Source: a virus (lineage: Duplodnaviria > Caudoviricetes). From it: a stretch of DNA of 64,000 bases. Location of the stretch: positions 1 through 64,000 of the IMG/VR virus record IMGVR_UViG_649989997_000001; one strand, 5' to 3'. Shown here piece after piece: positions 27,314-39,479 of the stretch. Numbering within the stretch: the first letter of the stretch is position 1; the number at the start of each line of letters is the position of its first letter. The notes under the pieces are model-generated. The model saw only the letters and a list, made by a program, of their open reading frames with translations. It did no database searches and was not told the origin of the DNA. Position numbers and translations under genes: made by a program.

Positions 27314-28423
27314 TCAATCCTCACCATTGAACTTATTTTCCAAGAGTTGCATAAGAGCATCCTTGTCCGGCAGGACAAGTTCATACTTGCTGGCGAAAAT
27401 CTGTGTATTGCCCTCCGGCAAAGTCATTTCTACCACGGCATTATTTTTCTCCTTGCAGAGCAGAATACCAACAGTGGGATTCTCTGTCGCCAGTTTCACC
27501 TTGCGGTCATAATAGTTCACATACATCTGCATTTGCCCAAGATCCTGATGTGTAATGCTTCCAATCTTGAGATCAATGAGGACAAAACATTGGAGCAGAC
27601 GATTGAAAAATACCAGATCCACATAGAAGTGCTGTTCATCAAAGGTCAGTCGTTCCTGCCGACCTACAAAGGTATAGCCCTTTCCCAGTTCCAATAGAAA
27701 ATGCTGCAATTCATCAATGATGCGCTGCTCCAAATCAGACTCCGAATAGCGGCTCTCCTCGGGCATTCCTAAGAACTCCAAGATGTATGGATCTTTCACG
27801 ATGTCCTCGGGACGTTCCACAGTCATGCCCTGTTTGGATATCTCGGCGATAGCTTTCTTATCACGAGAAAGTGCCAGGCGCTCATAGAGAGCAGCGTTGA
27901 ACTGTCGCTTCAACTCACGCAGACTCCATCGCTCGTTTGTAGCCTCATTTTCATAGAATTTACGTTCCTTGTCATTTGTGATGCGCATGAGGAACAAATA
28001 GTGCGACCAACTCAACGTGAATTGCGCAGAGAGTGTCTGCAAATTGGTCGGAGGCGGTTCAAAAATCCGAGACGCTGTTTCGGATTTCTGCGCGATCGAT
28101 TCCCGAGACGGTGTTTCGGAAATCACTTCGTTGCTATATGTAATGTAAAAACGACGCATATTCTCGAGATTATCTACCGAGAATCCTCTGCCAAAGCGAT
28201 TCGTAAGATTTTTCGAGAGTTCCTTTAAGACGCTCTTTCCATACTCCGCCCGCAGCGCCCCCTTTTGCTCATGCTCTACAATCATGCGCCCAATTTCATA
28301 GTAAGTAACGATCATTGTGGAGTTGACCACAGTGACAACATGCTGTTTGGCATTTTCAATAAGAGCGGCGATTTGCTCCACCAAATGATCGTTGCTTTCC
28401 ATATTCGCTAATTCTTTGCTCAT
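27314..28423 (-). CDS. yhcG: YhcG/DUF1016 PD-(D/E)XK nuclease-domain protein
   Basis: LSWSHY, KDPYILEFLG, VDLVFFN..IDLK, GQMQMYVNY. Confidence 0.88.
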   Translation of the reverse strand: MSKELANMESNDHLVEQIAALIENAKQHVVTVVNSTMIVTYYEIGRMIVEHEQKGALRAEYGKSVLKELSKNLTNRFGRGFSVDNLENMRRFYITYSNEVISETPSRESIAQKSETASRIFEPPPTNLQTLSAQFTLSWSHYLFLMRITNDKERKFYENEATNERWSLRELKRQFNAALYERLALSRDKKAIAEISKQGMTVERPEDIVKDPYILEFLGMPEESRYSESDLEQRIIDELQHFLLELGKGYTFVGRQERLTFDEQHFYVDLVFFNRLLQCFVLIDLKIGSITHQDLGQMQMYVNYYDRKVKLATENPTVGILLCKEKNNAVVEMTLPEGNTQIFASKYELVLPDKDALMQLLENKFNGED

Positions 28424-28575
28424 GCTCACACCTACAAAAATAAAACGCCCCCAAGTGTGCATAAAAACATCGGCTTCCAGAGGCTTGAGAGAGAAGTCCC
28501 TTTCAGTAGTTAATGCTATATTTTCCCCTGCCTTCACCTACAGGAAATCAGTGAAAGCGTGGATTATCAATGTTT

Positions 28576-29673
28576 TCACGCCGCCTCTCGATCATCATTA
28601 CATTGTATCGTTATTGACGTTACTTCGTTCATCGCCGCTACCAAAATGATACTAGAGGGAAACGTCAGCGTCGCATTCGCACGCGACACCGTAATCTGGC
28701 GATCCTCGATCGGCTCGCGCAGCACCTCAAGTGTCTTCTTGCTGAACTCCGGCAGTTCATCCAGAAAGAGCACGCCGTGATGCGCGAGTGTCACCTCGCC
28801 CGGACGCGGGATGCTCCCGCCGCCGATCATCGCCACCGTCGATGACGTATGATGCGGACTGCGGAAGGGACGCGTGGTCACAAGCCCTGTATCCTTGCCG
28901 AGCAGCCCCGAGATGCTGTATATCTTTGTGATCTCGATGGCTTCTTCCTTCGTCAGTTCCGGCAAAATCGAACTCATCCGACGTGCCAGCATCGTCTTGC
29001 CCGAACCGGGTACACCGACCATCAGAACATTATGCCCTCCTGCCGCCGCAATCTCAAGCGCACGTTTCGCCTGATACTGCCCCTGTACGTCCGCAAAGTC
29101 ATCGGTGAAGGCAGCATCTTTTTTCTGTTCTGTTGCTTGTGGCACAGCAGGAGTCAGCACCTCTGTGCCAGTCAAATGACGCACAAGCTGTGCCAGATTC
29201 TCGACGGCATAGACCTTCAGCCTGTCAATCAGGAGTGCCTCGTCTGCATTCGACGGTGCAACGTAAAACTCCGTCAGCCCATGTTCTCGCGCCGTGATTG
29301 CCATCGGGAGAATGCCGCTGATCGGTCGGCAGTTCCCATCGAGGGAAAGCTCTGCCGAGAAAAGCGCACTCTGCACTGCCGCCTCGGGAACCATACCGTA
29401 GGATGCAAGGAGACCAACCGCAATTGGCAGATCAAGCCCCGAACTGTCCTTTCGCACATCGGCAGGTGCGAGATTGACCGTAACCCGCTCCTGCCGCAGC
29501 TGCATACCGGAGTTGCGAATCGCAGTTCGTACCCGCTCCTTCGATTCCTTCACCGACGTATCGGGAAGCCCGACCAGCTCAAAGCCCGGCAGCCCCGGCG
29601 ACACATCCACCTCAACGTCGATAATCCGTCCATCTATCCCGAGGGTCGTCGCACCATAGGTCTTTGCAAACAA
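28576..29673 (-). pseudogene. comM: 5' part of comM (YifB Mg-chelatase-like ATPase), truncated
   Basis: [32 protein letters not shown]; ends after LVAAMN with 16 unrelated residues instead of PCPCG and the C-terminus. Confidence 0.9.
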
Positions 29674-29756
29674 CGGCCTTCCCTCCTACGTTTCAAATAT
29701 AAGAAAATTATAACACAGGATGGTGGAAGTTGCCTAATGATTCTTTGCAAAAGAAA

Positions 29757-29790
29757 AGATTCCAAACGTCGGAGGTGACGAATGGAATCT
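29757..29790 (-). terminator. Terminator of the WYL operon
   Basis: AGATTCCA..TGGAATCT hairpin followed by TTTCTTTT on minus strand. Confidence 0.7.
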
Positions 29791-29800
29791 CTGTTATTTT

Positions 29801-31609
29801 TCATTCTGTATCAGAATCAATTATACATGCAGTCCAATCAATTTCCTCGTGCTCCTGCCGAAAGAGAAAGAACTTCATATAGGTATATACATCCTTCAGG
29901 GAGATCATCACACAGACAACATCCTCTCCCCACCGATCGGTCAGGTACTGGAGTGCTCCCTGATAGCGATTCGTCGGCGATACCAGTATATCCCATCCGG
30001 CAAGGTATTTTACGTAGCACTCAAATTTCCGCATATCTGTGGAGATTTCTCTCGGCTTCATACTTGCAGCAAATGCCCGTGCCGCAAGGACTTCCTCCGA
30101 CGGAACTAAGCATACGGAAAGCGTATCCTGTTTACTGTCGACCTCCTCCCACACTTTTTCATGCCTTTCCACGGCAAACCGCTCAGGATCATCATCGAAT
30201 ACATGGACACGCTGCCCCCATTCTTCATAAATTGTAATCGGGCGCATGTAGAACATCAAGAAACCACGATCTTCACTCCGATCAACTGACTCTACAACAA
30301 AGGGCGTACCGTCAAAGAATTTTCCTATGGTATATCCATCATTCATTTCGGTCAGTGCATCTGGATTCCACGGTGTCATGCGGATGTCACAGGTCAAATC
30401 ATCAAATTTATCATTGGGATCACAGAAATAACCCATTTCATGTGATGCAAGCAGTCCTCGAGGGTCACGATCCAACCTGTCCTCTGCCGTATCATCATCT
30501 GCCCACAGATTCAGCTCCGGCAGCTTCTCCGACTCCTCAGAGGGGGCCTCTTCATCCGTGCACTCCTGCAGTGTGAGTCCCTGCGTTTGAAATACCTCGC
30601 GGAAAACATCGCAATGCTCGCCTGCCGCAAATACAACAGTGTCAAATGCCTTCGCATAGGTCTTCATGAGCGCGGCATACGCCTCGGCAACAATGTCCGG
30701 CGGATTCTCCCGATAGTCACAGCCAAAGGCGGGAAGGACAAGAATCCTCTCTCTTTTCTTCCCGTCAAGCCGGTAGCGAGCACGCTCACAAATCGCTCTG
30801 CCGCGCAGAACGTGCAAGGAGAACAGTGCTGTTCTTACCAGACTGTCACTCATATCATACGAATTTTCCTTCTCATGGGTAAGCACTCTTTTCGCCGGAG
30901 AACTCATGTGGCCGCCCGCCATATTCGGCGGTGCACACGTGATGACGTCGACATATCCCCACTCGCTCTCGGGGAGAGGCTGCGGCACTCCCTCGCGAAC
31001 CTCCTTAAAGATCGTGATATTCTCTGAATAGATGCAGTCGTTCGTTGCCTCATCATCCTCGTCTGCAAGATTCTTTTTGTAAAAAGCTTTCCATATATTT
31101 TCGCCCACAAGTGTCGAATAGAGATTGGAACAAATGCAGAGGTTTTCCTCCACGCCGTCGGCACCGATGTGAACGTAACCGCCGGGGCTTGTCGCAGACC
31201 CTGGGTTCACCGCCACAACTAGCTTGTCCGGATGCGCAAGGGAGAGTTTTCGCGCGATGTCTACCAGTTCCCCCGTCTGGACATAAATGTGCGCCTCTTC
31301 CCCACATATGCCAAGGAACCTGCGCCCTCTGGAACTCCCCAGACACTGCATCCCCATCGTACGGCTATATGCGTCTTCCTCACAAAAGTGCACGACTGGC
31401 ACATTCAGATCAAGGTCTTCATAATCGTCACTCATAGAGTTGAGTATCGTCTCGGTGATAGCACAAGAATACGGGCTCAGACGCACATCTTCCAACACAC
31501 GACGCTGTGTGTCCACGAAGGCATGGCGCATCTCAAATCCCCGTTTCATCCGCTCCTTCGCCAAGCGCTCTCTACGCCACTGCTGCCACTGCTCTTCATT
31601 ACTCTTCAT
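29801..31609 (-). CDS. TIGR02452/DUF2263 bacterial PARG-like macrodomain protein with unknown C-terminal domain
   Basis: VAVNPGSATSPGGY..GADGVEENLCICSNLY, CIYS, VITCAPP, LPAFGC..NPP. Confidence 0.75.
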   Translation of the reverse strand: MKSNEEQWQQWRRERLAKERMKRGFEMRHAFVDTQRRVLEDVRLSPYSCAITETILNSMSDDYEDLDLNVPVVHFCEEDAYSRTMGMQCLGSSRGRRFLGICGEEAHIYVQTGELVDIARKLSLAHPDKLVVAVNPGSATSPGGYVHIGADGVEENLCICSNLYSTLVGENIWKAFYKKNLADEDDEATNDCIYSENITIFKEVREGVPQPLPESEWGYVDVITCAPPNMAGGHMSSPAKRVLTHEKENSYDMSDSLVRTALFSLHVLRGRAICERARYRLDGKKRERILVLPAFGCDYRENPPDIVAEAYAALMKTYAKAFDTVVFAAGEHCDVFREVFQTQGLTLQECTDEEAPSEESEKLPELNLWADDDTAEDRLDRDPRGLLASHEMGYFCDPNDKFDDLTCDIRMTPWNPDALTEMNDGYTIGKFFDGTPFVVESVDRSEDRGFLMFYMRPITIYEEWGQRVHVFDDDPERFAVERHEKVWEEVDSKQDTLSVCLVPSEEVLAARAFAASMKPREISTDMRKFECYVKYLAGWDILVSPTNRYQGALQYLTDRWGEDVVCVMISLKDVYTYMKFFLFRQEHEEIDWTACIIDSDTE

Positions 31610-31671
31610 ACCCTACAGCTCCTCTCTCTTCACAATCACAAAAGAATATACGAACGTCAACCGACTTTAAC

Positions 31672-32619
31672 TCACCTCCGCTGCAGCGGTATCTGCAAAA
31701 GATAGGTTTGAAACTCTTCGATCGAGTACATCGTCTTATCATAGAGCCCATATCCCATCATCGAGGCTGCCGCAAATTTCACGGGGAAGGGATAGTTAGA
31801 CGGCTGCAATCCTGTCACAATCGTATGGAGACCATTCTTCTCGGGGTCATGATTCGCCAGCAAAAAAATCAGTGCGATGTTCTCACTCTGGATTGTAATA
31901 TCGTGCGGCAAGTTCTTCATGTCAGGAATCAGCCCGAGTTCGCATTTCTGACGAAAGACCTCGGCATAGTCGGCACAGATGGCGGGGAGGTTTGCCGTCT
32001 TCAGAAAATGCCCAAAATCTCTTAGGTGCTCCATCAGCCCCGATGTACCGGACTGTGCCCCATCACCGTACTTCATCTCGATGAAAGCCAGCTTCGGCGC
32101 GTGGAGGTTTTTGCGTACCGCACCGATTGACGACCAGTGCACGGCAACCATGTCAAAACGTGCATCCTCATAGACAAACTCTGTGTCGACGATATAGTAG
32201 TCCGTCGCATGAGAAATCTCCCCATGACGATTGTTATCGCGCTCAACAAGCTGCTGAAACTCACGCTCGTACTTTGGATATTCTGAAAACCACCGATCCA
32301 TCGCCTGTTTATAAATCGGCACCTGTTCGATCGCCTCCGCAATGGAGGGCTGTCCCGAAAGGTTTTGTCCATGACTACAATAGTTCGTGTCAAAATGCAG
32401 CACGTACTGCGTTCCGTTCCACTCGATGCGCAGCAGACTTCCTCCACGATAGTAAATACTGGCACATGTCCCCCGCATTTCGAGCTCCAGCGTTGCGTCC
32501 TGAAGCACGAGATTCAGCAGTCCGTTCAGACATCCACACGAATTCTTCAGATCGTGAAACATTTTCGAGCCAAGTGCTCTCATTTCAGCCGTCCTTTCTT
32601 CCCATAACAGTATCAGCAA
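31672..32619 (-). CDS. Putative PD-(D/E)XK nuclease-fold protein
   Basis: ERE.QQ...DTEF...RFDMVA...FIEMKYG arrangement. Confidence 0.55.
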   Translation of the reverse strand: MLILLWEERTAEMRALGSKMFHDLKNSCGCLNGLLNLVLQDATLELEMRGTCASIYYRGGSLLRIEWNGTQYVLHFDTNYCSHGQNLSGQPSIAEAIEQVPIYKQAMDRWFSEYPKYEREFQQLVERDNNRHGEISHATDYYIVDTEFVYEDARFDMVAVHWSSIGAVRKNLHAPKLAFIEMKYGDGAQSGTSGLMEHLRDFGHFLKTANLPAICADYAEVFRQKCELGLIPDMKNLPHDITIQSENIALIFLLANHDPEKNGLHTIVTGLQPSNYPFPVKFAAASMMGYGLYDKTMYSIEEFQTYLLQIPLQRR

Positions 32620-33527
32620 AGATAGCGCCGCAGAGATTTCTCCTTGTGCAGTGCGGATATGAGTTCCCGCACGGTCATCAGCTCCACATCGAATTGAACA
32701 CCGCGCGCATCCATCATCCCGATCAGATCGCCAAGACGCCAGCGAAATGCATCGAACTCCTCACGCAGCTCCTCCTCTGCCTTGACATAGAGACTATACT
32801 CCGCCTCATCGTCAAAGAACGAAGGATTGCTGATGGTCCATACACAGAGGGAGAGTTTGACCTTCTCTGTAAGAGGAAGCTCCCCCGTGTAAAAGAGGGC
32901 ATTGTAGATCGCATAGACATGCTTAAAGAGCTGCGCCGTATCCAGACGCTTTGCCAGCGGAGCATAGCCCTTTTCCCCCGCCTCTGTATGAAACAGATTC
33001 CGCGTCATTTCCAGACCAACGAACAAGTCCCAGTCAGGATATTGCTTCTCATTGCTCAAATACGATACCGGCAGTGGGTCATGCGAATTCGCCAGCCACT
33101 CTGTCATCTTCATCTCAAAAAGCAGCAGCTCGTCTCTGCGAGAGAGACAGGCATCGAGATGGGCTTTTGCAGCCGGATTGAGTGCGGTCAGCTGCTTTTC
33201 GTACGTCACAGTATATGCACGGCACATGATGTCGTAAGGTTCGCCATTAAACAGATACGCAGGACGATTGCCAAACAGATTGTACGTCATTGCCGCAGAG
33301 GAGTGAAGTGCACGCATATCCTTGTCAAGTTCACGCCCCGCACCCGCTTGGTAGGAATGCTGCACGCGGTCATACATCGGCTCAATCAGATTGTTGCCCA
33401 TGTCTTGTAGATAATATGGATTCTCCTCGCTGAAGAGGGCTTCTTTCCCTGGATTGAGTCTCATCCAGTGACGTTTGATTCCCGCATATACCTTTTCTTT
33501 GCTTACACCGCGTGCCATCATGCACAC
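32613..33527 (-). CDS. PGN_0703-like putative restriction endonuclease
   Basis: LHSSAAMTYNLF, YEKQ, HLDA, FEMKMTE, QLFKH motifs. Confidence 0.6.
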   Translation of the reverse strand: MCMMARGVSKEKVYAGIKRHWMRLNPGKEALFSEENPYYLQDMGNNLIEPMYDRVQHSYQAGAGRELDKDMRALHSSAAMTYNLFGNRPAYLFNGEPYDIMCRAYTVTYEKQLTALNPAAKAHLDACLSRRDELLLFEMKMTEWLANSHDPLPVSYLSNEKQYPDWDLFVGLEMTRNLFHTEAGEKGYAPLAKRLDTAQLFKHVYAIYNALFYTGELPLTEKVKLSLCVWTISNPSFFDDEAEYSLYVKAEEELREEFDAFRWRLGDLIGMMDARGVQFDVELMTVRELISALHKEKSLRRYLC

Positions 33528-34084
33528 TCCTTCTCTACAATGAATCCACTCCAGTTGTCCGCATACTGCAGGAGGAGCGTCAGCTTTTCCTCCCGCGCGG
33601 CAACGCTCCGATTGTCCTCGACATACTGCCCGTCATGGTAGACGATCGCCTGTACCTCCTCCTCTGTCAGTCGGAATCTGCTCGCCACAAGATAAAGTCC
33701 GCGAATCGGAACACTCAGATAGAGGAGGTCGCGGTTAAAACGATATGGGCTGCGCGATGCGCGCTCACCAGATGACAGTTCGCTGCGCAGATACTGCGGT
33801 TTGCCAGGCATTCCTGCCTTGCCGAGGTCATGGAGGAGAGCAACGATGACGCAGCTCTCGTCGCTGATCTCAGGGGCGAGCACAGCCTTGATCTGCAGCA
33901 GATGCTCTGCAACGTTCACGCTGTGTTCAAGCAATCCGCGCTCCCGGCAGAGATGGTATCGCGTCGAGGCAGGTGCCGTCAGATAAGCCGTCTCCTGCTC
34001 AATATACGCCATCAGTGCGCGAAACTCCTCTCTGCGCTGCACGACTTTTGCCTTGAGAACCTCGTAACGCTCCATGAGTTCCAT
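33518..34084 (-). CDS. HD-domain phosphohydrolase (YhaM-like)
   Basis: APAS.RYH..GLLEHS, LLHDLGK, YHDG, AD. Confidence 0.85.
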   Translation of the reverse strand: MELMERYEVLKAKVVQRREEFRALMAYIEQETAYLTAPASTRYHLCRERGLLEHSVNVAEHLLQIKAVLAPEISDESCVIVALLHDLGKAGMPGKPQYLRSELSSGERASRSPYRFNRDLLYLSVPIRGLYLVASRFRLTEEEVQAIVYHDGQYVEDNRSVAAREEKLTLLLQYADNWSGFIVEKECA

Positions 34085-34089
34085 ATCCT

Positions 34090-34506
34090 TTATTCCTCCT
34101 CAATGTCCCCCATCGTCAGGCGTGCATCCTTCCTCTCCTGCTCCCTTATTCCTGCACAGGAAATGAGGCCATCCTGTATCCGTGCAATCCATTCACGCCC
34201 CCACTCATAGATGTAGATAGAGGTGCCTACGAGAGCCAGTGGAATCTCCACCACGTCCATGAATACGATGATCAGACTCCTGTCGTGGGCATGGGCAACC
34301 TGATAAAAGTCCAAAAGCATCTCACGTTCATCCGCATCCATCGCGTATGGCTGCACAAAAAGGCCAATCGCCGGAAATGCAATCAGGTCACTGAAATCCT
34401 CTGCCTCATACAGATGATAACCAAAGTCTGTCACGAATGTCCTGCGTACCCACTCCGTTTCCTCCGGTGTCAGTCCGTAGGTGTATATATTGCTCCAAAG
34501 ATTCAT
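34090..34506 (-). CDS. Hypothetical protein
   Basis: Overlaps the WYL gene stop; GGAGG RBS. Confidence 0.75.
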   Translation of the reverse strand: MNLWSNIYTYGLTPEETEWVRRTFVTDFGYHLYEAEDFSDLIAFPAIGLFVQPYAMDADEREMLLDFYQVAHAHDRSLIIVFMDVVEIPLALVGTSIYIYEWGREWIARIQDGLISCAGIREQERKDARLTMGDIEEE

Positions 34507-35492
34507 ACGTCCTCCTCATACACTCTTGCCATCCGTCGTATAGCCTCACGAACTGCCGTGCGCAGGCTCTGCGGCTCTAGAATCTCAACATACAGACCAT
34601 ATTGTAGTGCCCAGTACTTCATTGCCGCCTCATTGCACGAGAGTGTGACGATCATCTGATCGCTCTCCTCCTGCATGATGCGGAAGTCTTTGCCAAACCA
34701 GTCCACGAGTGCATCCATCATGGAGGTGTTTGTCCGCAGCTTCACGGTGACGCTCTCGCCGCCGAACATATAGATATGTTCCGCCATGTGGCGCGGGAGG
34801 CTGAATCCACGGGAAAACTCTCGTACAGCACTCTTCGGCTTTGCCGCATCGGGCAGCATCTCAATCGCCGTAATGCGGTCGACACGATAGTGCGACACAT
34901 TGTCGTGGGCATTGTGATTCCCAATGAGATAGTACCATCCGTTGTGTGCGGCAAGTTGGTAGGGACTCACGATATAGGGCTCACTTCGTTTCGGATGTAG
35001 TTTGAAGTCTGTCCCATAGGTGTTGTAGGTGAAGCGCACCTTGCGTTTTTCCTCGATGGCATCGTTGAGCACGTCAAGCGCAATCATCACCTGCTTGTTG
35101 TCAGCGTGGGAAAGCTCAGGAAGATTCGAGATGTGTGCTATTTTCGCATGAAAGTAGCGATTGCCAAATGACCGCAGCTTTTCAACGAGCCGCTTTGCCT
35201 GCGCTGTCGAGAGCGTCCGCGAGAACAGAACACTGTCGATCAGCATACGCAACTCGGCATCATCGAAGTCCCGTTCCACAAGCCAACATCCGCCATGCGT
35301 TGCGATGTCGTAGCCCATGTCCTGGAGGGACTGGATGTTGCTGCGCACCGAGCGGCGGTCACAGGTAATCCCATACTGTAACTGCAGCAAACGGATGATC
35401 TCGCTCTGCGTCAGCCGATGATCTGCATCCGAGTGCTCCTGCAGCACCCTCAAAATCAGCAGATTGAGCATTTTCTTGTTCGCACCATACAT
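34503..35492 (-). CDS. wHTH-WYL-WCX transcriptional regulator
   Basis: N-terminal wHTH, SPYQL..WYYL, YRVDRI, EILEPQSLR. Confidence 0.92.
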   Translation of the reverse strand: MYGANKKMLNLLILRVLQEHSDADHRLTQSEIIRLLQLQYGITCDRRSVRSNIQSLQDMGYDIATHGGCWLVERDFDDAELRMLIDSVLFSRTLSTAQAKRLVEKLRSFGNRYFHAKIAHISNLPELSHADNKQVMIALDVLNDAIEEKRKVRFTYNTYGTDFKLHPKRSEPYIVSPYQLAAHNGWYYLIGNHNAHDNVSHYRVDRITAIEMLPDAAKPKSAVREFSRGFSLPRHMAEHIYMFGGESVTVKLRTNTSMMDALVDWFGKDFRIMQEESDQMIVTLSCNEAAMKYWALQYGLYVEILEPQSLRTAVREAIRRMARVYEEDV

Positions 35493-35526
35493 CGTACTAT
35501 CTCCCTCTCGTCTTGCTTACACAGAG

Positions 35527-35562
35527 AGTATAGCACAGATAATGTGCATTTTTTTGCACATT
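35527..35562 (-). promoter_or_regulatory. WYL operon promoter and palindromic operator
   Basis: TGcTATACT extended -10; AATGTGCA-N6-TGCACATT at 35541..35562. Confidence 0.65.
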
Positions 35563-35592: not shown

Positions 35593-37161
35593 TTACCCTC
35601 CAACACCCATCTCAATCTCGCCCTTGAAAACAACTACTGTGCCATCCTCATTGACCACAATGTGATCGAGCAGTCCGCCCCATAGCTCCTCGTCAAACTC
35701 GACTTGTTCCCCTTTGATACCACATACCACTTGAATCATGGTCTCTAGGGTTTTTCTCTTACTCTCCCTCGCGGCAATTTGGTCATCCAACCTCGCTAGA
35801 TGCCCCTGCTTTTCCACATAGAGTGCGCGAATCTCATTCTCCTGTTTCAGATACGCCGTCTGATCCTGTGCCACCCGCGCATTCTCGCGAATCAGTGTTT
35901 CAAGACGTTCTGCCAAAACGCCAAGTTCCTGCTCTATTCTATTACGCTCCCCAATCAACTTCCCTGTTTGGCAAACATCATCAACCAGCGACCGAAGTTC
36001 TGCAATCACGTGCTCTTTGACTTCCACCAAGGAATTCAATGCCTTGACGAAAATCTGTTTGATCTCCTCCTCTGTCAGATGCCTTGTACTGCACGGCTTG
36101 CCCTTGTGGGCATATTTCTTATTGCAGCGATAGATAACTCTGCGGTACTTATCCGTGGAGTGCCAGACCTTCGCACCGTACCATGCGCTGCAGCAGCCGC
36201 ATTTGATTTTGTTCGCGAAGATGCTCACACCGCTGTGCTTGCCGTTCTGCTCTCTGCGTTTTATCTCCGCTTGCACAAAGTCGAATAAGTCTGGAGGAAT
36301 GATTGCCTCGTGGTGTTCCTCCACATAATACTGTGGAATCTCTCCCTTGTTTCTGCGTCGCGTCTTATCCAAAAAGTCTGCCGTATATTGTTTCTGGATC
36401 AGCGCATCACCGCGATACTTCTCATTCGTGAGGATGGAGCGCACCGTGGAAATATACCATCTATCTTTTCCAGACGGAGATTTGATGCCCCGTTTCTCTA
36501 GTTCCTTGGTAATCGCGTAGAAGGATCGCCCGCCAAGGAAGAGTTTGTAGATGAGCCTTACGATTTTCGCCTGTTCTTCGTTGATTTGGAAATCCTTGTC
36601 ATAGCCGAGAAAGGCACTGTAGCCCACACTGGTCTTGCCCTCGGCGAACTGCTTGCGCTTGCCCCATGTGGTGTTCTCCGAGATGCTGCGACTCTCCTCC
36701 TGGGCTAGGCTGGACATAATCGTTATAAGGAGTTCTCCGCGCGTGTCAAACGTCCAAATGTTCTCTTTTTCAAAGTAAATCTCTACGCCATGTTCCTTGA
36801 GTTTACGGACGTTTTGGAGTGAATCTACGGTGTTTCTCGCAAAGCGGCTGATCGACTTTGTAATGATGAGGTCAATCTTGCCTGCAAGGGCGTCCTCGAT
36901 CATCTGGTTGAACCCGTCACGCTTCTTTGTGTTGGTGCCGCTGATCCCCTCGTCCGAATACATGCCGACGAAATCCCAGTCTGCACGGCTTTCGATGTAG
37001 TTCTTGTAATGAGCCATCTGCATTTCGTAACTGGAAGCCTGTTCTTCATGATCGGTCGAAACTCTGGCATATCCTGCCGTCCTGCGCCGTCTTGGTTCTG
37101 CCGTAACCTCAGAGCGAAAGATTTTAGGGCTTGCAGGGATGACCCTCACTGTCTTTGCCAT
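35593..37161 (-). CDS. Large serine recombinase
   Basis: YARVST, SISRFAR, recombinase domain, CGCC zinc ribbon, coiled coil. Confidence 0.93.
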   Translation of the reverse strand: MAKTVRVIPASPKIFRSEVTAEPRRRRTAGYARVSTDHEEQASSYEMQMAHYKNYIESRADWDFVGMYSDEGISGTNTKKRDGFNQMIEDALAGKIDLIITKSISRFARNTVDSLQNVRKLKEHGVEIYFEKENIWTFDTRGELLITIMSSLAQEESRSISENTTWGKRKQFAEGKTSVGYSAFLGYDKDFQINEEQAKIVRLIYKLFLGGRSFYAITKELEKRGIKSPSGKDRWYISTVRSILTNEKYRGDALIQKQYTADFLDKTRRRNKGEIPQYYVEEHHEAIIPPDLFDFVQAEIKRREQNGKHSGVSIFANKIKCGCCSAWYGAKVWHSTDKYRRVIYRCNKKYAHKGKPCSTRHLTEEEIKQIFVKALNSLVEVKEHVIAELRSLVDDVCQTGKLIGERNRIEQELGVLAERLETLIRENARVAQDQTAYLKQENEIRALYVEKQGHLARLDDQIAARESKRKTLETMIQVVCGIKGEQVEFDEELWGGLLDHIVVNEDGTVVVFKGEIEMGVGG

Positions 37162-38639
37162 CGGTACGCGCCTCCTTCTTTGAGTTGAAATATGACCTCA
37201 TCATCGGATATGATGATCCGCTCGACGTTCTGCACAATCTTGCCCTCGTAGCAGTCACCGAAGAAAGATTCTGCCGCTTCCTTTAGTTCGGATTCGGGCA
37301 GCCGTTTCAGTCGGCACTTTGTGCGCGGCTGACTGCAAGCCCACACCTTAATCCCCTTCGTCCAAGTGTCACGCTCACACTTGCTGCCGCAGGAGCCACA
37401 GTACACTTTGTTCATGAAGGGATTACTGCCGCGCTGCCCTGTGTATATTCGGGCAGTCTTTTTTATGTGACCGTTGATTAGGTGAAATTCCACACAGTCA
37501 TTGTGAATGACGATCTTAGAGACTTTTCGTCTGAGTTCTGCGGTATCGAAATCATCCTTCTCCATGACGTCTCTGACCGCAGCCACAAGCTCCTCCTCTT
37601 TGATCGGACGGCTGTCACAGGATTCCCTACCTTTCCGCTCTCTCGTGTTGCATGCCCACCGCCTGTACTTCCCGGCGGTTCTTCTGCTGAAGCCGCCGCC
37701 GCAGCATCCGCATTTCACCATTCCGGAGAATGGCATCAGCACAGGATTCCGATTCACAGCCCGTTCGGCCCTCAGTTTTCGTATCTCCTGCGCCTTGTCG
37801 AAATCTACCTTTGACACGAGTTGCTCGAACATCCCCTCCACCAGATACATGGGAAGTTCGCCTTTATTCCGCTTACGGATATGACCTTCCGTGATGTAGT
37901 TCTTCTGCAATGCCATTGTGCCTGTGTAGGAGATGTTGGAGAGGATGTCCTTTACCGTGGTCTGCTCGATGGGTCTCCCCTGCCGCCCCGTGATTCCACG
38001 TCCCGCGAGACTCCTCGCGATGGCGTAGGCAGAATCTCCGGCAAGGTATCTCCGGAATATCTCCTTGACGATCTCGCCCTCGGAAGGAACGATGCGGAAC
38101 ATCTCACCGTCCCATTGGTAGCCGTACGGTGCTTTATGCCCGTTCGGGATCCCCTGTGCGAACCGCCTCCGTACGCCCCATCGAATATTGTCGCCGATGC
38201 TTCTGCTCTCTTCCTGCGCAAAAGATGCGAGCAGCGTCAAGAGCAGCTCTCCGTCCTCGGATGTGGAATCAATGTTCTCACGCTCGAAGCGAACGGCGAT
38301 CCCCTTCTCTTTCAGCTGTCGAACGGTATGAAGGCAATCTACGGTATCTCTGGCAAAACGGCTGATGCTTTTGACAAGTACCAAATCAATCTTCCCGGCG
38401 TTGCAGTCGGCGATCAGCCGCTTGAACTCCGTCCGATGCGTGGTACTCGTTCCTGTGATTCCCTCATCTGCATAGACTCCTGCGTATTCCCACGCAGGAT
38501 TTTTCTGGATGAGACTGCTGTAGTAACTGACCTGCGCTGCAAGGGAGTGGTGAAGCGTATCCACAGAGACGCGGGCATACGCAGCCACACGCAGCTTTTT
38601 CTGCAATGTTGGGGTTGGTTGAACTCTTCGTATCTTCAT
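37146..38639 (-). CDS. Large serine recombinase (two zinc ribbons)
   Basis: YARVSV, SISRFAR, CGCCG and CGSCG; AAAGGAG RBS before ATG 38639. Confidence 0.92.
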   Translation of the reverse strand: MKIRRVQPTPTLQKKLRVAAYARVSVDTLHHSLAAQVSYYSSLIQKNPAWEYAGVYADEGITGTSTTHRTEFKRLIADCNAGKIDLVLVKSISRFARDTVDCLHTVRQLKEKGIAVRFERENIDSTSEDGELLLTLLASFAQEESRSIGDNIRWGVRRRFAQGIPNGHKAPYGYQWDGEMFRIVPSEGEIVKEIFRRYLAGDSAYAIARSLAGRGITGRQGRPIEQTTVKDILSNISYTGTMALQKNYITEGHIRKRNKGELPMYLVEGMFEQLVSKVDFDKAQEIRKLRAERAVNRNPVLMPFSGMVKCGCCGGGFSRRTAGKYRRWACNTRERKGRESCDSRPIKEEELVAAVRDVMEKDDFDTAELRRKVSKIVIHNDCVEFHLINGHIKKTARIYTGQRGSNPFMNKVYCGSCGSKCERDTWTKGIKVWACSQPRTKCRLKRLPESELKEAAESFFGDCYEGKIVQNVERIIISDDEVIFQLKEGGAYRWQRQ

Positions 38640-38673
38640 GGTGCTCTCTCCTTTCCAGTCCCATATTCCCGTA

Positions 38674-38859
38674 CTATCCGCACGATAGCAAGTCAATATC
38701 TGAAAATAGAAGCCCGATGACGGGGCGATATTTCTCGCGCATTTTCGCTTCAAACGCAAGATACTCATCCTCTGACAAAAGCCCGCTCTGCAACATTTTC
38801 CATGAAGCACGCATCACCATCTGATACGTCATTTCCCGAAGGCCTTCTTCCTTGCTCAT
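38674..38859 (-). CDS. Small SHOCT-like protein upstream of recombinases
   Basis: ML.SGLLSEDEY pattern; position typical for this LSR cassette. Confidence 0.65.
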   Translation of the reverse strand: MSKEEGLREMTYQMVMRASWKMLQSGLLSEDEYLAFEAKMREKYRPVIGLLFSDIDLLSCG

Positions 38860-39361: not shown

Positions 39362-39479
39362 TCAGACACCTCCTGCTTTCTTCCATTTATTGAGATTGCT
39401 CATCCTGCGCAGCCGTCGCCTCTGTGCCGAGTTCCGATAGAATCTTCTCGGCAGAAACGAAACCTCGGTATCTAGCCAT
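39362..39479 (-). pseudogene. Chimeric remnant: start of neck gene fused to end of last tail-module gene
   Basis: 30-aa ORF 39387..39479 overlaps the head-closure stop; another frame ends RRMSNLNKWKKAGGV* and contains the holin RBS. Confidence 0.55.

Follow-up and report, generated by a model that had tools for sequence, protein, structure and literature searches.

Background

The described systems closest to the locus reported here are the ARG-centred systems, which Iyer, Burroughs, Anantharaman and Aravind predicted in 2022 to counter viral ADP-ribosylation (Viruses 14:1977, section 3.8; PMC9503650). These combine a WYL or Nudix regulator, a phosphoesterase (mostly a rhodanese-phosphatase, sometimes an HD protein, and also calcineurin-like or HAD enzymes) and chaperones with variable modules, among them Macro/NADAR proteins and restriction-fold effectors that include a previously unknown, fast-evolving REase (PMC9503650). 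As of 2022, little was understood of how hosts counter ADP-ribosylation by phages and toxins (PMC9503650), and our literature search found no experimental test of ARG-centred systems. Here we analyze a six-gene operon at positions 29801-35492 of a 64,000-nucleotide stretch (the window), which is the first 64 kb of the 114.5-kb virus record IMGVR_UViG_649989997_000001 of IMG/VR; the remainder, positions 64001-114551 of the contig, was handled as L074-L076. The operon encodes a WYL regulator, a 138-aa receiver-like protein, an HD hydrolase, two predicted nucleases of the PD-(D/E)XK fold and a PARG-like enzyme. We treat it as a PARG-type variant of the ARG-centred systems, very likely with the same mode of working.

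Two further lines of work bear on this locus. Bacterial PARGs strip ADP-ribose from RNA 2'-OH and phosphate ends and protect cells from an RNA-targeting ADP-ribosyltransferase (ART) toxin (PMC11833690). In D. radiodurans, the PARG gene DRB0099 is part of a damage-induced operon, DRB0100-DRB0099(PARG)-DRB0098(HD-Pnk) (Lu et al. 2025, NAR 53:gkaf069; PMC11833690). Furthermore, single-stranded DNA (ssDNA) is sensed by WYL repressors of the CapW type (PMC11662680).

A six-gene operon between a predicted operator and a terminator

The minus strand carries a tightly packed head-to-tail series of six co-oriented open reading frames (ORFs), numbered here from 1 to 6 in the direction of transcription. 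The successive junctions are a 4-bp overlap, a 5-bp gap, a 10-bp overlap, a gap of about 29 bp and a 62-bp gap. The ORF of gene 5 extends to a TTG codon at 32619 (31672-32619, 315 aa), and use of that start would turn the gene 4/5 junction into a 7-bp overlap; the start at 32583 (303 aa) is more likely because homologues begin about 12 codons in. The original prediction had read this region as six co-oriented genes under a WYL regulator, bounded by a palindromic operator and a terminator, and the ORF list, the Pfam WYL and WCX domains of gene 1 and the two boundary elements described next agree with it.

The promoter/operator region (35527..35562, minus strand) contains an extended -10 element, TGcTATACT (35527-35535), followed by a GAGGGAG ribosome-binding site. 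The -35 position is overlaid by an exact 8-N6-8 palindrome at 35541-35562, the perfect inverted repeat AATGTGCA-N6-TGCACATT. This is the sole match in the window, even when 3 mismatches are allowed, and the match by itself is not beyond chance, as at least one match occurred in 19 of 100 shuffles. Orthologues of the WYL gene in other Selenomonadaceae are preceded at the equivalent place by inverted repeats with an A/T spacer and differing half-sites (TGTGCA/TGCACA, TGTACA and TGGGTAAA/TTTACCCA). We consequently read the palindrome as the operator because of its placement over the -35 position and because half-sites co-vary before WYL orthologues, not because the match is rare; it is on this co-variation that the predicted operator chiefly rests.

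At the other end lies an intrinsic terminator (29748..29791, minus strand), made of a 9+4-bp hairpin at 29756-29791 and a U-tract at 29748-29755. Its calculated stability is -20.9 kcal/mol (z -4.7), which none of 200 shuffled sequences equalled, and a simple consensus scan missed it because of the long loop. A separate promoter-like site for comM lies downstream of the terminator. The tight spacing, the one operator-bearing promoter and the one terminator point to a single transcription unit.

The PARG-like protein, the HD hydrolase and two nucleases

Gene 6 (29801..31609, minus strand) encodes a PARG-like ADP-ribose glycohydrolase of 602 aa, an assignment already made in the original prediction. 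It matches PF10021 (PARG_cat_microb) with 57 bits (cut-off 23.5) and TIGR02452 with 59 bits (cut-off 50), and in the PDB it matches the PARGs of D. radiodurans and T. curvata (E 5e-8). The macro/PARG domain covers residues 100-340, approximately, and is followed by an orphan C-terminal domain (about 345-602), whose roughly 260 residues have almost no relatives and gave no match in the PDB (by sequence), the protein atlas or Pfam. The protein belongs to a small subfamily with the signature GGY-X7-VEE, whereas the canonical signature is GGG-X6-8-QEE; the third Gly and the Gln are thus replaced, two Gly are kept, and both catalytic Glu are invariant.

Gene 3 (33518..34084, minus strand, 188 aa) is an HD-superfamily metal-dependent hydrolase (Pfam HD, 28.1 bits), again in line with what had been proposed, with the invariant metal ligands H44, H54, H85-D86, H150 and D176. 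Phosphohydrolase PHROGs of phages are matched as well (phrog_28876, E 3e-20), and when the family profile was compared with the PDB the sole solved relative was the HD domain of the exonuclease YhaM (9h3f, E 9e-4). It is the most conserved gene of the module, its product being 78-83% identical between loci.

Gene 4 (32613..33527, minus strand, 304 aa) had been called PGN_0703-like; this name is not borne out, since there is no NCBIfam match, and Pfam assigns the protein instead to REase-ARP (PF22558), a family of PD-(D/E)XK nucleases. The match of 29.6 bits is just over the cut-off of 27, five of eight family members match likewise, and the motif D125...E138-x-K140 is kept. REase-ARP proteins are 27-32% identical between loci whose HD proteins are 78-83% identical, an alignment-based contrast by which gene 4 is fast-evolving. 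Judging from the names, the fast-evolving REase of PMC9503650 is very probably this same Pfam family.

Gene 5 (p303; 31672..32583, minus strand, 303 aa) encodes the second PD-(D/E)XK-like protein of the original prediction, and here the fold model and the conserved residues D144...E169-x-K171 bear the assignment out. Its family has more than 1260 homologues and is without a Pfam domain. In the AlphaFold2 (AF2) model (pLDDT 87) an N-terminal alpha/beta domain precedes a C-terminal domain that matches NucS, Upx, BstEII, HamA, Card1 and SduA, with Z up to 7.6, and nucleases dominate the list of matches. Genes 4 and 5 were also considered as paralogues, which was rejected on an hhalign probability of 0.1%. 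In sequence alignments the catalytic residues are intact in the HD protein, both nucleases and the PARG-like protein.

Distant homologues of gene 5 (34-44% identity) are paired elsewhere with an MBL-fold/beta-CASP (RMMBL) protein, encoded by an ORF of 415 aa that immediately precedes the gene-5 homologue in four loci (L045, L050, L056 and L059) and by a 445-aa ORF downstream of it in L034. These distant homologues also adjoin type I restriction-modification (R-M) genes in L048, L051, L056 and L058. The pair with the MBL protein is possibly a two-nuclease module outside PADLOC v2.

The regulator and the receiver-like protein

Gene 1 (34503..35492, minus strand, 329 aa) encodes a transcription regulator of the winged helix-turn-helix (HTH)-WYL-WCX type, with Pfam matches to WYL (55.5 bits) and WCX (40.5 bits) and a match to the PADLOC WYL model (E 2.5e-33). 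The N-terminal HTH is implied by conservation of that end of the protein and by a weak match in NCBIfam. A phmmer search with gene 1 found no close sequence relative with a solved structure, and the family profile alone reaches such proteins: it matches the WYL-domain structures 7u02, 7tzv and 8tp8 (E 3e-7), which we take to be DriD-ssDNA complexes, and PafBC more weakly. PafBC and the WYL proteins of solved structure are regulators of the DNA-damage response. Across the operon PADLOC recognised the generic WYL model and weak Cas3-HD models only, so that the full match that had been expected to be lacking was indeed not obtained.

Gene 2 (u138; 34090..34506, minus strand, 138 aa) gave no match in Pfam, NCBIfam, PADLOC or PHROG, and the Pfam null covers any cRec-type model held there. 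The AF2 model, built from a 12-sequence alignment (pLDDT 87), is a receiver (REC/CheY)-like (beta-alpha)5 domain extended by a long helix at the C-terminus, and the top 50 structural matches (VIA-align, Z 9.4-7.7) are almost all receiver domains of response regulators. Beta3 does not end in an Asp, and the acidic pair after beta1 is also absent from its expected position; the model is therefore read as a pseudo-receiver, and gene 2 probably encodes a pseudo-receiver adaptor. A TIR reading, suggested by protein atlas scores of 0.79-0.81, was rejected since the model is receiver-like and no TIR domain was among the top structural matches. Homologues were found in Selenomonas only, with about 32% identity between loci. 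At the DNA level gene 2 of this operon is about 79% identical to the common allele, against 98-100% for the genes on either side (L010, L011 and L070); from these identities it is an allele replacement, by a hyper-divergent allele.

The cargo slot of a Selenomonas prophage

Comparison of the contig with itself revealed two sister prophages in series, with a common block of head, portal and terminase genes. A recombinase pair is repeated (35593-39412 matches 79035-82860), and so is a 1.2-kb segment with the 5' part of comM (28576-29793 matches contig 68600-69820 at 92%), which bounds a prophage of about 40 kb; the contig ends carry a 755-bp repeat (99.7%). Directly upstream of the operon lie two large serine recombinases of 522 and 554 aa (35593..38810, minus strand; Pfam Resolvase, Recombinase and Zn_ribbon_recom), referred to here as SR1 and SR2, and in metagenome contigs they are always linked to the operon. 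Beyond the recombinases, from 38.9 to 62.7 kb, PHROGs identify a holin, major head protein, portal, large terminase, helicases, primase, polymerase and exonuclease. The phage genes and the self-comparison together therefore place the operon in the interval between the serine recombinases and the junction with the 5' part of comM, inside one prophage of about 40 kb, and not between two prophages as had been supposed. The host is Selenomonas.

The slot is variable, because the equivalent interval of the sister prophage holds other cargo. Near the recombinases it encodes two proteins, one of 204 aa with a TNT domain (NAD+ glycohydrolase) and a SIR2/ThsA-like one of 252 aa (L074:11990-13411, contig about 75990-77411, minus strand), followed further along by DUF389, NhaA, a pyrimidine-dimer glycosylase and an MFS transporter. 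The TNT and SIR2/ThsA-like genes look like an NAD-depletion candidate in the slot equivalent to that of the PARG operon. In the sister, a 22.7-kb segment (contig 82860-105531) separates the holin/recombinase block from the head genes; the operon prophage lacks it at the equivalent place (about 39408-39412).

Downstream of the operon, the truncated 5' part of comM (28576..29673, minus strand, 365 codons) lies within the 1.2-kb repeat, which in this contig runs to codon 365. The comM frame (27314-29673 region) stops at this codon, inside the Mg_chelatase AAA domain, and is followed directly by a YhcG/DUF1016 nuclease (PADLOC PDC-S02, E 2e-144) and then by a type I R-M region. The C-terminal part of comM was found nowhere in the contig, which is therefore a tandem array or a cyclic assembly path. 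Integration at codon 365 was considered and set aside, since other contigs put the phage-linked junction near codons 25-47 (29531-29600) in some hosts.

That the operon is phage-borne would also suit a role in phage counter-defence, in which, on induction or infection, the PARG-like eraser and the HD protein would strip the ADP-ribose that DarTG- or CmdTAC-type defences of the host have set, and the nucleases would break down host DNA or act in the processing of phage DNA. Phages are known to encode orphan erasers of the DarG kind that counter DarTG (PMC11825919, PMC13309987), and expression triggered by ssDNA would coincide with prophage induction. The layout is nevertheless that of a self-contained moron, with its own regulated promoter and terminator, placed by the integrase and outside the lytic operons. 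Furthermore, WYL-HD relatives without phage genes are found in chromosomes (L002, L111/L113), and in a 2.8-Mb contig (L027) the operon is retained in a remnant with an SR1 fragment only. We regard counter-defence as unlikely.

Conservation of the block and its variants

Neighbourhoods were reconstructed from tblastn matches and clustered ORFs. At least 12 independent metagenome contigs show the order SR2-SR1-WYL-u138-HD-REase-p303-PARG-comM5' with 75-99% identity, so that the co-occurrence of the genes elsewhere, on which the original prediction had made its case depend, is found. Only one further contig of IMG/VR carries the PARG gene, in the same SR2-SR1-operon-comM5' order, and a blastn search of deposited phage genomes with the operon gave no match. 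We conclude that the operon is real, and that it is both conserved and mobile.

Its close relatives differ at the distal end. In L002 genes 1-4 are kept and both p303 and PARG are absent, and L024 and L027 are without PARG. These absences would fit a different arrangement, in which a WYL-u138-HD-REase core and a separate p303+PARG pair, or even unrelated morons, merely share slot and transcript, and the p303 family is indeed widely distributed by itself, with the MBL/beta-CASP nuclease and near type I R-M genes. Against such an assembly stands the six-gene order kept in the 12 or more contigs, together with the gene 4/5 and 5/6 junctions, where a consensus scan found no terminator, even though weak promoter-like matches occur within genes; ADP-ribose hydrolases also recur independently with WYL-HD genes. 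That the operon is not one system is thus very unlikely.

A second kind of variant is seen in L019-L021, where a 1.5-kb deletion joins regulator codon 27 to HD codon 51-58, approximately, and gene 2 is wholly gone. The deletion brings the promoter to both nucleases, plus PARG in L021. For a regulator of the repressor type, this would mean that de-repressed nucleases are tolerated.

The wider WYL-HD family

The HD gene is present in 41 of 261 Selenomonadaceae species genomes, and 42 loci were rebuilt. Its partners are a WYL regulator (29 loci), an AAA+ protein of about 690 aa (20), PolC/DnaE-like PHP-polymerase genes or fragments (14) and REase-ARP (8), and there are single cases of other nucleases, namely Mrr and a PDDEXK_4 protein that is PADLOC candidate PDC-S26. 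In L142 one operon encodes, among others and in this order, a WYL protein, a 786-aa ARG-containing fusion protein, ARG, a PARG of canonical signature, a 100-aa protein and HD. ARG is also carried by L123 and L119, and the viral contig L146 combines two serine recombinases, HD, WYL and ARG. A WYL-HD core that is conserved while its partners are exchanged (REase-ARP, Mrr, PDC-S26, AAA+) suggests the evolution of a conflict system, as do the divergence of REase-ARP (27-32% identity, against about 80% for HD) and the replaced u138 allele.

Among L108-L145 a trio of WYL regulator, the ~690-aa AAA+ protein (AAA and AAA_lid_6) and HD gene recurs. Its frequent neighbours are PolC/DnaE-like PHP-polymerase genes or their fragments, an FtsZ-like gene, or genes for pentapeptide-repeat proteins.

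The polymerase neighbours, which adjoin one third of the related WYL-HD loci, raise the possibility of a damage-induced nucleic-acid repair module, where PARG clears ADP-ribose-blocked ends, HD heals them and the nucleases resect, to the benefit of the lysogen or of the induced phage after DNA damage. The homology of the regulator to PafBC and to the solved WYL proteins is in keeping with such a role, and a PARG gene beside that of an HD protein is documented in a damage-induced repair operon (PMC11833690). The operon has no ligase or kinase, though, and its one very fast-evolving nuclease and the partners swapped between strains are atypical of repair genes. Moreover, it occupies a prophage cargo slot, and its relatives co-occur with the defence candidates PDC-S26 and Mrr. 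To repair we accordingly assign a low probability.

Proposed function

The gene content and context are best matched by a role in conflict or defence in which the removal of ADP-ribose is linked to the processing of nucleic acids. More specifically, the likeliest reading, which we put forward tentatively and rate at a little under an even chance, is that of an inducible immunity module, carried by a prophage, in which nuclease effectors are coupled to the erasure of ADP-ribose and the processing of ends. The regulator would bind the palindrome observed over its own -35 position and set expression. As in CapW, an ssDNA or a related nucleic-acid by-product of DNA damage or of incoming phage replication would bind the WYL domain and switch the operon on, and BrxR and DriD are likewise grounds for such ssDNA-type switching. 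The PARG-like enzyme would then strip off ADP-ribose that an ART of the invader has attached to proteins or to nucleic acids, there at the ribose 2'-OH or at phosphate ends; this activity is suggested because the Glu-Glu catalytic pair is intact and because of the activities of bacterial PARGs. The YhaM-like HD hydrolase might process the resulting ends or the released ADP-ribose or nucleotide, and REase-ARP and the second PD-(D/E)XK nuclease would be the effectors, acting on invader or damaged DNA. The 138-aa receiver-like protein could, more speculatively, be an adaptor incapable of phosphorylation, by which the regulator or the HD enzyme is tuned.

Several observations weigh against this immunity proposal. 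The absence of p303 and PARG in close relatives shows both to be dispensable, and the link with PARG may therefore be an add-on and not the core function. An ADP-ribose hydrolase accompanies only 4 of the 42 WYL-HD loci (three with ARG, one of these also with PARG) and one viral contig. The REase-ARP match is barely above its cut-off, the HD protein resembles the exonuclease YhaM, weakly, and not the alarmone-type HD of PMC9503650, and the PARG signature is non-canonical (GGY...VEE). The defining ARG core of the ARG-centred systems is absent from the six proteins by Pfam. Furthermore, the position of the operator would fit an activator as well as a repressor. PafBC is an activator with an operator in such a position. 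Finally, we know of no phage ART target for Selenomonas phages. Repair and counter-defence are inseparable from immunity by sequence, because they would use the same biochemistry and the same logic of induction.

At its most far-reaching, the immunity proposal would make this operon the first PARG-based anti-ADP-ribosylation immunity module, by which the prophage gives its lysogen an ssDNA-triggered eraser of ADP-ribose on host nucleic acids or proteins, set there by superinfecting phages or contact-dependent ART toxins, together with two nucleases directed at the invader and a hypervariable pseudo-receiver as specificity or anti-inhibitor part; we hold this to be rather doubtful. If true, and considered with the TNT/SIR2 cargo of the sister prophage, it would point to an arms race over NAD+ and ADP-ribose between co-resident phages of oral Selenomonas. 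The operon is a practical test case, because it is small, with well-defined ends and an operator that can be identified, and encodes four enzymes with their catalytic residues kept. It also gives a large unnamed nuclease family (the more than 1260 relatives of gene 5) a predicted fold and context, and ties in with recent biochemistry on the repair, by bacterial PARGs, of RNA and DNA ends that carry ADP-ribose (PMC11833690).

Comparison with known systems

The regulators BrxR, CapW, DriD and PafBC share with gene 1 the WYL and WCX domains, an inverted-repeat site in their own promoter and a place ahead of a conflict operon; gene 1 differs in that it reaches solved structures only through its family profile. 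The D. radiodurans operon DRB0100-DRB0099-DRB0098 (ligase, PARG, HD-Pnk) is alike in that PARG adjoins an HD-family enzyme in a damage-response operon, a mode of control expected here, whereas the present operon has no ligase or kinase, has two nucleases and another regulator, and is phage-borne. DarTG also places a macro-fold eraser of ADP-ribose in a setting of phage conflict, but here the eraser is of the PARG type and not the DarG type, six genes stand under a transcription factor, and Pfam finds no ART in the operon. Searches of the 114.5-kb contig, two of them made without a positive control, gave no DarT, KptA, exotoxin-ART or PARP match; the DarT search gave none in the control genomes either.

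The original prediction held that the operon matches no named system, which no longer stands, as its architecture fits the ARG-centred systems of PMC9503650. The WYL or Nudix one-component regulator of those systems corresponds to the WYL and WCX protein here, with a predicted operator in its own promoter, and their phosphoesterase, for which HD is a listed option, to the HD protein with its invariant H...HD...H...D. Both have a fast-evolving restriction-fold nuclease and variable accessory modules swapped around a conserved core, and a Macro-type ADP-ribose enzyme, there an accessory, is present in both. The ARG-centred systems have no coupled ART or sirtuin; in the operon Pfam finds none, though the orphan C-terminal domain of the PARG-like protein matches no family, and the sister prophage has TNT and SIR2-like genes. 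The differences lie, besides the missing ARG core, in the sole ADP-ribose enzyme, here a divergent PARG with a novel C-terminal domain; in the HD protein, closest to YhaM; in the extra receiver-like protein and the extra PD-(D/E)XK family; in the chaperone and ARPP, neither of which Pfam recognised here; and in the setting, prophage cargo in Negativicutes, a lineage not listed in PMC9503650. The operon shows the other listed features of the ARG-centred systems, as far as the searches for a coupled ART reach, but is without the ARG core, and we therefore do not file it as a strict member. It extends the class in three ways, by PARG in place of ARG, by Negativicutes and by prophage cargo, and what is new here is a PARG-bearing, HD-type variant of a conflict system that has existed only as a computational prediction.

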